Notes: a model not told the origin generated them from the sequence alone. DNA of 64,000 nt from Caulobacter segnis (GCF_003243465.1 NZ_QFQZ01000013.1:4614-68613); one strand, 5' to 3'; shown: positions 16,698-21,191, numbered from the stretch's first letter. Numbers and translations are program-made.

Positions 16698-17861
16698 TTA
16701 GCCTTCGATGATATGCGGCACGAAGCGCGAGCGGTCGCGCGTCACGCGCCCGCGGTCTTCGCGCACGCCAATGCCTGCGGGCTGGTCGCCGATCACCCAC
16801 GAGCCGACCACGGGATAGTTCGCGCCGAACTTCGGCGGCGGCTTCAGTTCCTGGCGAATCCAGCCCTCAGCGCCGTAGCCCTGGTCCAGGACCCGCCCCT
16901 TGCGGCCGTTGGTCCACAGCTCGACGTTCGCGCCTTCGCGGCTGAACAGAGGCTTGCGGGCGTAGCTCGACCCCAGGCGCTCGACCTTGGGATCGTCGTC
17001 GAAATAGGTCTCGAGCAGGTTCGGGTGGCCCGGGTGGCGCTCCCAGAGCAGCGGCAGCAGCGCCTTGTTCGACAACAGCGCCTTCCACGGCGGCTCGATG
17101 AACTGGGTCTTGGAGCCGGCGATGTTGGCCGCGTACGGCTCGCGCAGCATGTCCTCCCAGGGGTACAGCTTGAACATCGCCCCGATGAGGTAGTTGTCCT
17201 GGTCGACGAAGCGGCCGTCGGCGTCGAGGCCGATCTCCGTCGTCGGCACGAACTTGGGCTCCAGCCCCGCCAACCGCGCCATGTCCTCCAGGAACCGCAC
17301 CGTCTGGCGGTCCTCGACGAAGTCCGGATCGCTGGCGAAGTGGACGAAGCCGCCGTTCGGGAAGATCGTCTTGAACCGCTCGGCCAACTGGTCGTGCAGG
17401 CTGTTGAACTGGTCCGTACTCTCCGGCAACGCGCCGCGCTGGATCAGGTCTTCCAGCCACAGCCACTGGAACACCGCCGCCTCATAGATGCTGGTCGGCG
17501 TGTCGGCGTTGTACTCGTAGAGCTTGGGCGGCCCCGCCCCATCGTAAAAGAAGTCGAAGCGGCCATAGAGCGACGGATCGCGCGCCGTCCACGAGGCGGC
17601 GACGACATCACGAGAGGCCTCCGGGATCTGGAGCCTGGCCATCAAGGCGTCGCTGCCAACGGCTTCCTCGACGAAGTCCAGGCACAGCTTGTGCAGCGCC
17701 TCGGTCGCGGGCTCCAGATGGCCCTCGACCTCCTCGAGCGTGAAGGCGTAGGCCGCCCGCTCGTCCCAGTAGCGACGGCCGTCGGCGTGATGCCAGGTGA
17801 AGCCGACGGCCTCGGCCCGGGACTTCCAGTCCGGCCGAGGCGTCAGGGTAAGACGGCGCAT
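16698..17861 (-). CDS. yjfC: Glutathionylspermidine-synthase-like ATP-grasp protein (YjfC/YgiC family)
   Basis: 387 aa with the pre-ATP-grasp GspS signature (LYGRFDFFYDG..PKLYEYNADTPT, WKALLSNKALLPLLW). Start overlaps the upstream stop by 1 nt (TGATG). Confidence 0.85.
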   Translation of the reverse strand: MRRLTLTPRPDWKSRAEAVGFTWHHADGRRYWDERAAYAFTLEEVEGHLEPATEALHKLCLDFVEEAVGSDALMARLQIPEASRDVVAASWTARDPSLYGRFDFFYDGAGPPKLYEYNADTPTSIYEAAVFQWLWLEDLIQRGALPESTDQFNSLHDQLAERFKTIFPNGGFVHFASDPDFVEDRQTVRFLEDMARLAGLEPKFVPTTEIGLDADGRFVDQDNYLIGAMFKLYPWEDMLREPYAANIAGSKTQFIEPPWKALLSNKALLPLLWERHPGHPNLLETYFDDDPKVERLGSSYARKPLFSREGANVELWTNGRKGRVLDQGYGAEGWIRQELKPPPKFGANYPVVGSWVIGDQPAGIGVREDRGRVTRDRSRFVPHIIEG

Positions 17862-18613
17862 CAGGCGTCCTTGGAGCCGGCCCTGACCTTGTCCTCGATG
17901 GCCAGCATCGGCGCGGGCAGAGCCTCGTCCTTGGGCGCCATCAGGCGGGCCAGCACGTCCTCGGCCCCGCCGCCGCCCGGCAGGATCCCCGCCGCCGCCA
18001 GCTTGGCGTCGAGATCGGCGCCGGTCTTGCGCTCCTCGGACTCGTTGTGCAGGCGGAACTGCTCCTCGCGAACGGCCTGGCGCTCCTTGATGCGCTTGAG
18101 GCTGTCGGCGGCCGAGCCGACCACGCCGCTGGCCGAACCCGAGCGCGAGATCACCGCGGCCTGGGCCTTCTGGACGCTCTCGTTGACCTTGACGATCTCG
18201 ATCTCGCGGCGCAGCGCCTCGACCTTGGCGTCGGTTTGCGAGATGACCGTGCGCAGCTTTTCCTCGGCGGCGCGCAGCTCGGTCATCTGGGTCGACTTCT
18301 GGGTCGCGTCCTTTTCAAGATCGGCGATGCGCTGGGCCACTTCCAGGGCCAGGGCCTGGTCGCCCTTGCCCATGGCCGCGCGGGCCGAAGCCTCGTACTT
18401 GCGGATCTGGTCGGTCAGGCCCCCGACCTCGGTCTCCAAGGACCGGCGTCGGGCGACCAGCTTGGCCAGTTCGTCCCGGGCCTTGCCCTGGGCGTTGTCG
18501 GCGTCGCGGATTTCCTGATCCAGGATCCGCAGGGCGTTGGCGTCGACGATGGTCTGCGCGCCGTCGTGGGCCGTGCCGCGGAAGAGCGCCGAGAGCTTGC
18601 TCCAGATCGACAT
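17861..18613 (-). CDS. yjfJ: PspA/IM30 family protein (YjfJ-like)
   Basis: 250 aa coiled coil with the N-terminal MSIWSKLSALFRG..ILDQEIRDA typical of PspA/IM30. Confidence 0.85.
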   Translation of the reverse strand: MSIWSKLSALFRGTAHDGAQTIVDANALRILDQEIRDADNAQGKARDELAKLVARRRSLETEVGGLTDQIRKYEASARAAMGKGDQALALEVAQRIADLEKDATQKSTQMTELRAAEEKLRTVISQTDAKVEALRREIEIVKVNESVQKAQAAVISRSGSASGVVGSAADSLKRIKERQAVREEQFRLHNESEERKTGADLDAKLAAAGILPGGGGAEDVLARLMAPKDEALPAPMLAIEDKVRAGSKDA

Positions 18614-18638
18614 TCGAAGGTCTCCAGGTCTCTGTTCT

Positions 18639-19310
18639 TTAAGCGGCCGCGCCGCGGCTCTTTTCGAAGTTGTCGCGCAGATCGCTGGCGGCGGCGATGG
18701 CGTTGTCGGCCAGGGTGCGCAGCTCGATGATCAGGGTCTGCAGGGTGGTCTTGGACGAGATCTCGCCCATCAGCTCGTAATAGTCGCGACCCTCGACGCT
18801 GGTGATGCCGAAGTTCGAGAGCGGCACGATCTTCTGGGCCTTGAGCAGGAATTCGTTGAAGGCCGCGCGGTCGTTCTGTTCGTCGCAGGGCCACAGGAGA
18901 GTCGAGACCACCAGCTGAAGCCCGCCGCCGCTGACATAGATCGGCAGGTCACCGAATTCGTGCATCACGACCAGCAGCACGGGCTCGACGCCCTCGACCA
19001 CGGTGACGGTCATTTCGCCTTCGCGCACCAGCGCGCTTTCCACCAGCCCGTCACGCAGGCTGTGAATGGTCCAGGCGATGTCGATAACGGAGTCCATGTG
19101 TCTGACGCCCTTGGGAGGGTTGGGGTTGGTCTTCAGCGCCGGCCCGCGGGCCGACTCCACGACGATGGCCTGGACAGCCGAGAGGATGTCGGGCTTGCAA
19201 GCCGCCGGAGCCCAGACCTCGATCTTCACGAAGCCGGCTTGCCGACGGGCTTCTCGCCACGCACGGGTCCTTTCGGCGGCCTGGGCGCCTCTCGTCGGTT
19301 TGGCAGGCAT
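18639..19310 (-). CDS. yjfI: YjfI (DUF2170)-like protein with a 71-aa N-terminal antitoxin-like (DUF3018/RHH-like) extension
   Basis: The C-terminal 152 aa (from ATG 19097) resemble E. coli YjfI (LPIYVSGGG.QL..STLLWP..VPLSNFG). The in-frame upstream 71 codons keep high GC3 and read AERTRAWREARRQAGFVKIEVWAP. The true start could be 19310 or 19097. Confidence 0.6.
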   Translation of the reverse strand: MPAKPTRGAQAAERTRAWREARRQAGFVKIEVWAPAACKPDILSAVQAIVVESARGPALKTNPNPPKGVRHMDSVIDIAWTIHSLRDGLVESALVREGEMTVTVVEGVEPVLLVVMHEFGDLPIYVSGGGLQLVVSTLLWPCDEQNDRAAFNEFLLKAQKIVPLSNFGITSVEGRDYYELMGEISSKTTLQTLIIELRTLADNAIAAASDLRDNFEKSRGAAA

Positions 19311-19313
19311 GCG

Positions 19314-20108: not shown

Positions 20109-20119
20109 GGGAGAGGCCG

Positions 20120-20533
20120 ATGTTCGACTTCACGGCGTTCCAGGACGGAGCGATCGCGTTCCTGGTGGCCTTCGTGGCCGCCGGCCTGTTCACCATCGCC
20201 TTCAAATACGTCTACCAGTGGGTGACGCCCTATAGCGAGAAGGCGTTGATCCGGCAGGGCAACCTGGCCGCCGCCATCGCCTTGGCGGGCGCGCTGATCG
20301 GCTATGTCCTGCCGCTCGCCTCGGCGCTGAGCCACACGGTCAGCCTGCCCGAGTTCGCCGCCTGGGCGACCCTGGCCGGCGTGATCCAGATCGCCGCCTT
20401 CACCGGCGTGCGCCTGGTCGCCCTGCCCGACGTCAAGGCGCGGATCGAGAACGGCGAGACCTCGATCGGCGTCTATCTGGCGGGTATCTCCATCGCGGTC
20501 GGCGTGCTGAACGCCGCCTGCATGACCGCGTGA
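20120..20533 (+). CDS. yjfL: YjfL (DUF350) membrane protein
   Basis: ATG at 20120, 137 aa, four TM segments. Ends ..NAACMTA like E. coli YjfL. Also has the GYVLPLASA block. Confidence 0.75.
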   Translation: MFDFTAFQDGAIAFLVAFVAAGLFTIAFKYVYQWVTPYSEKALIRQGNLAAAIALAGALIGYVLPLASALSHTVSLPEFAAWATLAGVIQIAAFTGVRLVALPDVKARIENGETSIGVYLAGISIAVGVLNAACMTA

Positions 20534-20543
20534 GGACCGCGTC

Positions 20544-21191
20544 ATGAGCCCCCGCAAGCGCTCCGCCTCGCTGCAGCTGACCACGATGTTGGCCGGCGCG
20601 GCCAGCCTCACCCTGGCGGGCTGCGACGACCCAAGCCCCGGCGCCCAGGCCGGCTGGGACCCTAATCGCGGCGAACAGGTCGAGGCCTTCAGCTACAAGT
20701 CGCTCGAAGAGTGCAAGGCCGCCAACGAGGTCTCGGACCAGCAATGCGACACCTCCTGGGCGGCCGCCCAGAAGGACGACGCCAAGAACGCCCCGCGCTA
20801 CGAAGCCCGCGCCTCCTGCGAGGACGTCTATGGCGCCGGCAATTGCGTGCCGCGCAGCGAGGCCGGCGGCGGAAGCTTCTTCACGCCCCTGCTGGCGGGC
20901 TTTGTCATTGGCCGGATGCTGGACGGCGGCGACTATTATCGCGGCACCGGTCTCTATCGACGCAACGACGATTATGGCGGCGGCTACTACTCGACCTGGG
21001 GCGGGCGCCTCGGCCGCGACTACGGCACCGGCCGCACGGTCATCACGCGCGAGAGCATCGACCCGCCGGACGCCATCCGTAACGCCCCGCCCAAGGTCCA
21101 GACTCGCACCTCGGTCGTCTCGCGCGGCGGCTTCGGCGGCGGACGCAGCTACGCCCACAGCGGCGGCTTCAAGGGCGGGTTCGGCGGTTAG
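20544..21191 (+). CDS. yjfM: YjfM (DUF1190) lipoprotein
   Basis: Lipobox LTLAGC. Blocks APRYEARASCEDVYG..C, SFFTPLLAGFVIGRML and a C-terminal SRGGFGGG match YjfM. Confidence 0.7.
   Translation: MSPRKRSASLQLTTMLAGAASLTLAGCDDPSPGAQAGWDPNRGEQVEAFSYKSLEECKAANEVSDQQCDTSWAAAQKDDAKNAPRYEARASCEDVYGAGNCVPRSEAGGGSFFTPLLAGFVIGRMLDGGDYYRGTGLYRRNDDYGGGYYSTWGGRLGRDYGTGRTVITRESIDPPDAIRNAPPKVQTRTSVVSRGGFGGGRSYAHSGGFKGGFGG

Follow-up and report, generated by a model that had tools for sequence, protein, structure and literature searches.

How might a PspA system be regulated without PspF? The question is raised by positions 16,698 to 21,191 of a 64,000-nucleotide stretch of Caulobacter segnis DNA (GCF_003243465.1, NZ_QFQZ01000013.1:4614-68613; the whole stretch is hereafter the window), in which counterparts of six Escherichia coli genes lie in two divergent groups, yjfI-yjfJ-yjfC on the minus strand and yjfK-yjfL-yjfM on the plus strand. 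The cluster is the Caulobacter member of the catalogued YjfIJKLMC/BacABCDEF envelope-stress module, which has already been published, and one more copy of that module adds little. Its interest lies in a testable regulatory model and not in its rearrangement. We hold, at a probability of roughly 0.55, that the known module forms two divergent operons around a 156-bp region, and that YjfI is probably a PspA-binding autorepressor that acts through an N-terminal head on two ACATGT cores. Together, a long YjfI, a palindromic element and overlapping promoters would make a concrete, testable model for the regulation of a PspA system that has no PspF.

The same gene set is known as the third group of CesT/Tir-PspA operons, which has been linked to polyamine metabolism (Ravi et al. 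2024, mSystems, PMC11237479), and its Pseudomonas aeruginosa counterpart is the bacABCDEF operon, where BacA is PA3732 and BacB is PA3731 (PMC10948618, PMC2587700). BacA, a DUF2170 protein, has the fold of a type III secretion system (T3SS) chaperone (structure 8Q8O, PMC10948618). It reportedly controls its own operon negatively and is predicted to bind the PspA homologue BacB: in a bacA mutant the five remaining Bac proteins (BacB to BacF) accumulate to excess (PMC10948618), and the binding of BacA to BacB was predicted with AlphaFold (PMC13092808). In E. coli, yjfIJKL form one expression module that is switched on in heat-adapted lines (PMC12492005). The canonical Psp parts (the AAA+ activator PspF, PspB/PspC and a sigma-54 promoter) are not in the window's cluster, a statement that holds for the cluster itself, as no genome-wide search for them was made.

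The start of yjfI and the control region

The original prediction had left the start of yjfI open, with a control region of 156 bp, or of 369 bp if translation began at 19097. Comparison with relatives indicates that the gene (18639-19310, minus strand) starts at 19310 and encodes 223 amino acids, and because this long start is supported, the gap between yjfI and yjfK is 156 bp and not 369 bp. The DUF2170 family (PF09938, 6.7e-49) spans residues 79-213 of the long form, so the question of the start concerns the 71 codons ahead of Met72. On the alternative view, yjfI would start only at 19097 and encode 152 amino acids, the upstream 213 bases would be non-coding, and the gap would be 369 bp. 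In favour of this view, Met72 (19097) is invariant, and at all 13 long-form loci a purine-rich, GGAG/AGGG-like element resembling a Shine-Dalgarno sequence lies 10-15 nt ahead of it (19107-19112 in the window); twelve other Caulobacter species and E. coli carry just the short form, and the chain of the BacA crystal structure starts with the DUF2170 domain. However, in the 71-codon extension the substitutions between close relatives pile up at the third codon position (0/0/9, 4/4/15 and 5/2/22 at codon positions 1/2/3), and the DUF2170 part behaves alike. The extension is in frame and free of stops at 13 Caulobacteraceae loci, at one locus of another alphaproteobacterial family and at one Pseudomonas-like locus, and both its open frame and its amino-acid sequence are kept down to about 50% identity across genera, including Caulobacter and Phenylobacterium, in both of which databases annotate a YjfI of 223 amino acids. 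The G+C content at third codon positions (GC3) of the whole open reading frame (ORF) is 0.85, in the range of 0.85-0.95 found for each of the six genes (0.91 in yjfC).

A start at 19097 alone is therefore very improbable in our estimate, and a reading of the internal start as an additional one fits better. The invariant Met72 and the element upstream of it make a second, headless YjfI isoform plausible, and 19097 may also be used, yielding the chaperone without its head. In the twelve Caulobacter species with short-form YjfI the intergenic gap is 137-209 bp.

The DUF2170 domain matches the BacA crystal chain 8Q8O over residues 79-210 (1.9e-25), and the NCBIfam BacA equivalog model (NF050185), which itself has an N-terminal extension, aligns to YjfI residues 12-208 at model positions 7-195 of 206, in a single stretch whose score rises from 127.5 to 141.9 bits once the head is added, which also favours the long start. 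Since 141.9 bits is far under the equivalog cut-off of 300, YjfI is not BacA itself.

Immediately upstream of the long start, at 19311-19338, lies an operator-like element made of two exact copies of ACATGTACGC 13 bp apart, which can also be read as the inverted repeat TACATGT-N7-ACATGTA. The element abuts the yjfI ATG at 19310, spans -1 to -28 of a putative leaderless promoter, and is unique in the genome with up to 3 mismatches allowed. In the alignment, no part of the intergenic region is near-invariant apart from a block of 35-45 bp that contains the element, and this block is recognisable at all 12 of the other long-form Caulobacteraceae yjfI loci compared. At a distant long-form alphaproteobacterial locus a different palindrome, TTCGCGAA, occurs twice with the same 13-bp spacing. 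The block and the head are also missing together: a search of four Caulobacter genomes that have short YjfI turned up no head domain at any locus, and their yjfI loci are without the operator-like block too. In short-yjfI Caulobacter species the region between yjfI and yjfK carries other conserved motifs (TTTCATACAAGATGGG, CATGACAAGTTGGTAAT and CGTCGTACATGTGA), so the two-armed cluster seems to be regulated differently within one genus.

Adjoining the element, at 19339-19345, two -35 hexamers overlap back to back on the two strands in the sequence CTTGACAAG, which is invariant in the alignment. TTGACA on the plus strand (19339-19344) is assigned to yjfK, and TTGTCA on the minus strand (19345-19340) is assigned to yjfI. 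Counted on the minus strand from the A of the ATG as +1, TTGTCA occupies -35 to -30 and is followed, after 17 nt, by TACATG at -12 to -7, which leaves no room upstream of the ATG for a Shine-Dalgarno sequence. From these positions we infer a leaderless yjfI promoter, TTGTCA-17-TACATG-6-ATG, and a yjfK promoter, TTGACA-16-CATCCT. Leaderless promoters are common in Caulobacter. The arrangement differs from that of bac, a single colinear operon for which a sigma-54 promoter has been proposed, whereas the window has two divergent operons and, for yjfI, a putative promoter that is sigma-70-like and leaderless.

The YjfI head and a feedback model

The head comprises residues 1-60 of YjfI (bases 19131-19310, minus strand). 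It is basic and is followed by a linker and then by the DUF2170/CesT-like chaperone domain (residues 72-223). E. coli-type loci have no such head, and the published BacA structure is without it. Half of its positions (30 of 60) are invariant among 18 homologues, and its first helix is rich in arginine. An AlphaFold2 model of the head alone has a predicted local distance difference test score (pLDDT) of 82, with a helix at residues 7-24, an extended segment and a second helix at 36-54; in a model of full-length YjfI the head is poor (pLDDT 30-55). When 1.84 billion representative proteins were searched exhaustively with a profile of the head, just 23 relatives came back, many of them stand-alone proteins of 50-80 residues. 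Six of eight stand-alone homologues match positions 1-37 of the MazE-like family PF11455 with E values from 1.6e-4 to 0.045, and one of them reaches the 22-bit cut-off. The literature that we searched yielded no description of either the YjfI head or the operator-like element.

In the mechanism that we propose, YjfJ would be a PspA/ESCRT-III-like membrane remodeller and YjfI its CesT/Tir-fold chaperone, while cytoplasmic YjfK, YjfL with four transmembrane segments and the lipoprotein YjfM would make up an envelope-facing trio. The yjfI mRNA would be leaderless, and its -35 hexamer would overlap that of the yjfK promoter on the opposite strand. The basic head of YjfI, which resembles the front half of MazE-like antitoxins, would bind the two ACATGT cores, repressing yjfI-yjfJ-yjfC from their own leaderless promoter and also controlling the overlapping promoter of yjfK-yjfL-yjfM. 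If the chaperone domain binds YjfJ, occupancy of the operator would report free PspA and so feed back on both arms. Envelope stress would draw YjfJ onto the membrane and repression would be relieved, the headless chaperone might also be made from the Met72 start, and the part of YjfC in the response would be to join a polyamine to the carboxylate of a peptide.

The proposed logic is like that of two familiar systems, though the parts would be different. In the PspA-PspF pair of E. coli, a PspA-family protein binds the transcription factor of its own operon, and expression reports the free partner. In the co-repression of type II antitoxins and toxins it is the toxin that binds the transcription factor of its own operon; in YjfI, however, the partner-binding domain would be a T3SS-chaperone fold and not an antitoxin tail. 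We suggest, with somewhat less assurance than for the reading given at the outset, that long-form YjfI/BacA may represent a type of transcription factor not described before, a basic DNA-binding head joined to a PspA binder of T3SS-chaperone fold, that would exert feedback on two divergent operons from a single leaderless promoter-operator and that a headless isoform could titrate. Such a model, if true, would account as well for the "possible regulator" phenotype of BacA in P. aeruginosa.

Several points weigh against the autorepressor reading. The window's own head has no Pfam match even at an E value of 10. Against PDB sequences nothing was significant, the best match being the C-terminal region of KorA (E 0.46), and a Foldseek fold search of the head against the PDB returned nothing; with no significant Pfam, PDB-sequence or fold match, a DNA-binding role for the head stays inferred. 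The MazE-like link comes from sub-threshold matches of homologues, which suggest a distant relationship, and membership of PF11455 is not established. Nor is the head essential to the module, as the twelve Caulobacter species with headless YjfI keep the layout. As the operator-like block includes a promoter and a start codon, some conservation would be expected even with no operator there, and a strict sigma-70 scan found no promoter. Which way YjfJ acts on repression is a guess on our part. For the binding itself, a YjfI-YjfJ complex prediction scored 0.47 against 0.01 for the best control, with runs that agree in at least 73% of contacts and a partner pLDDT of at least 68. Of 80 solved complexes 58 reached the mark used, as did 2 of 110 mismatched pairs, and predictions at 0.60 or under include only 7 of the 80 solved complexes together with both mismatched pairs. 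The result lends weak support to binding.

These points give room to a rival in which the module is the same and the head does not bind DNA, being instead an extension for dimerisation or for binding a membrane or a partner. In that case the conserved block would be no more than a leaderless promoter, perhaps one that an unlinked regulator binds. No DNA-binding family or structure matches the head significantly, the non-significant KorA match falls on the C-terminal part of the KorA chains and not on an identified DNA-binding region, and promoter and start-codon constraints alone account for part of the block's conservation, all of which this rival accommodates. But a promoter has no need of dyad or repeat symmetry at a constant spacing of 13 bp, and that symmetry recurs, with another sequence, at the distant long-form locus. 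The arginine-rich first helix, the several stand-alone homologues that match the front half of an antitoxin family and the over-accumulation of BacB to BacF in the P. aeruginosa bacA mutant (PMC10948618) also count against this rival. On balance we consider a non-DNA-binding head unlikely, though much less so than a yjfI that starts at 19097 alone, and we retain the autorepressor as the preferred reading.

Two arms that stay together

Do the two arms belong to one system? The original prediction described a full set of genes, conserved across distant lineages despite having been rearranged. Of 24 other Caulobacter genomes sampled, 19 have yjfJ and five lack it. All 19 have the window's layout, yjfC-yjfJ-yjfI diverging from yjfK-yjfL-yjfM, down to protein identities of about 55-65% (tblastn). 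In the five genomes without yjfJ, four of them at least 93% complete, DUF2491 and DUF2170 gave zero matches. Within this sample both arms are jointly present or jointly absent, which bears out the claim that the set is conserved as a whole.

Further afield, we drew on a phylum-wide sample of 401 genomes that includes the window's own. A word-based search for YjfK homologues gave only Caulobacter and Phenylobacterium, and the distant layouts were instead taken from a whole-genome family search, in which DUF2491 was found in 22 genomes; 20 of those loci were compared. Eight are of gammaproteobacterial type and colinear, in the order I-J-(channel)-K-L-M-C, and at one only K-L-M-C lie within reach. 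The window's layout is matched by five Caulobacteraceae loci and by one locus of another alphaproteobacterial family. Three loci of a third alphaproteobacterial family show another split, C-M-L-K-channel diverging from I-J, and the remaining two are weak or partial. This other split keeps the DUF1190 gene and the ligase gene together, unlike the Caulobacteraceae arrangement. DUF2170 and PspA adjoin K-L-M-C, in several gene orders, in 17 of the 20 DUF2491-centred loci.

The term "rearranged" thus stands relative to E. coli only. The window shares all six families with E. coli yjfIJKLMC, and it differs from E. coli and the other gammaproteobacterial loci compared in that those are colinear, whereas here yjfC lies behind yjfJ and yjfK-yjfL-yjfM are divergent. 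As a local event the rearrangement falls away, the layout being standard in Caulobacteraceae and occurring in another alphaproteobacterial family. The gene set holds together through changes of gene order and operon structure, and this speaks for a joint function, with the six genes acting as one unit.

It could be objected that the arms are independent modules that happen to stand back to back, a PspA unit of yjfI-yjfJ-yjfC and an unrelated envelope unit of yjfK-yjfL-yjfM, with no shared regulation. The arms are indeed separate transcription units, and expression data from E. coli group yjfIJKL without yjfMC (PMC12492005), which means that sub-units can be expressed separately. Against this stand the joint presence of the arms in the 19 Caulobacter genomes and the lack of markers of both in the other five, the 17 of 20 loci across the phylum that keep DUF2170 and PspA beside K-L-M-C, and the overlap of the two -35 hexamers. 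We consider independence of the arms highly improbable, if marginally less so than a yjfI that starts only at 19097.

A channel gene of the Ion_trans_2/TrkA_N type lies ahead of yjfK in many relatives, including one Caulobacter. This ligand-gated K+ channel belongs to many third-group operons but not to that of E. coli, and it is absent here as well: no orthologue was found in the window's genome, where the only similar gene is a paralogue of 24% identity elsewhere.

The six genes, the ligase and the neighbourhood

The six families proposed by the original prediction were borne out by a Pfam profile search, and the two divergent units agree in coordinates and strands. On the plus strand, yjfK (19467-20108) matches DUF2491 over its full length (PF10679, 3.9e-54), yjfL (20120-20533) encodes a predicted inner-membrane protein of the DUF350 family (PF03994, 1.5e-34), and yjfM (20544-21191) encodes a predicted DUF1190 lipoprotein (PF06693, 1.5e-39) with the lipobox LTLAGC. 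Clear Shine-Dalgarno sequences precede yjfL and yjfM. On reading its sequence we noticed neither a signal peptide nor a membrane segment in YjfK, and the C-terminus of YjfL carries the conserved motif VGLLNAACMT.

On the minus strand, yjfJ (17861-18613) encodes a PspA/IM30 (ESCRT-III-like) protein (PspA_IM30, PF04012, 3.5e-64) and is, in a genome search, the sole PspA-family gene of the 4.76-Mb genome. Near-identical proteins carry source names that assign the window to the C. segnis group of Caulobacter. It lies 25 bp from yjfI, which gives the DUF2170/PspA_IM30 dyad by which third-group operons are recognised; their other hallmarks, a glutathionylspermidine (GSP)-synthetase-like ATP-grasp ligase and genes for DUF2491, DUF350 and a DUF1190 lipoprotein, are present too. 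As had been claimed, the yjfJ stop and the yjfC start overlap by one base in TGATG. This overlap is not conserved, since about 100-200 nt separate the two genes in several Caulobacter species (tblastn coordinates). Beyond the PspA core, the tail of YjfJ (17864-17980) bears the motif DLDxKLxxAGIxPGxxSADDVLARL, which is common to alpha- and gammaproteobacterial orthologues in the alignment. The motif looks like an ESCRT-III MIM-like helix and may be where the chaperone binds. An Rfam scan of 16500-21900 returned zero RNA families, and a terminator scan gave matches at chance level.

The ligase gene yjfC (16698-17861, minus strand) matches GSP_synth over its full length (PF03738, 1e-146), and its PDB sequence matches, likewise full length, are YgiC (7UK8, 2.5e-121) and E. 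coli YjfC (7UK6, 9e-110). The window's YjfC is accordingly predicted, by homology, to be an ATP-grasp acid-amine ligase of the YgiC/YjfC type that joins polyamines to peptides. Two papers refer to YgiC and YjfC as peptide-spermidine ligases of unknown natural substrate (PMC11762307, PMC12568646, citing Pederick 2023). The earlier statement that the biochemistry is still unknown was therefore too broad, given the ligase activity cited and the crystal structures 7UK6 and 7UK8. It holds for the physiological substrate.

One candidate target lies within the cluster. The YjfM tail (21147-21191) ends in GGFGG, and nearly all of the alpha- and gammaproteobacterial orthologues compared end in WGG, YGG or FGG, with WGS in one group. 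Ligases of the GSP-synthetase type use a C-terminal glycine carboxylate, which makes the YjfM tail a candidate target of YjfC; topology is a problem for this candidate, the lipoprotein being exported and the ligase cytoplasmic. The extreme C-termini of YjfI, YjfJ and YjfK were also considered as ligase targets and rejected, none being conserved across classes (the YjfJ motif is internal to its tail).

Upstream of the cluster, at 12476-16597, lie genes for a dienelactone hydrolase, an Asparaginase_2 protein of the isoaspartyl peptidase type, CutC and a pectate lyase (Pec_lyase, 3e-78), with no evident link to the cluster. On the other side, an ORF of 192 codons (21248-21826, plus strand, GC3 0.83) begins 57 bp past yjfM and may be co-transcribed with yjfK-yjfL-yjfM. 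It has no Pfam or NCBIfam match, and only the closest Caulobacter relatives keep it in this place, at 67-83% identity. Just beyond the cluster, at 22305-25901 on the minus strand, is a gene of 1198 amino acids for a fused hydantoinase A/B of the 5-oxoprolinase type, 5-oxoprolinase being a member of the gamma-glutamyl/glutathione cycle.

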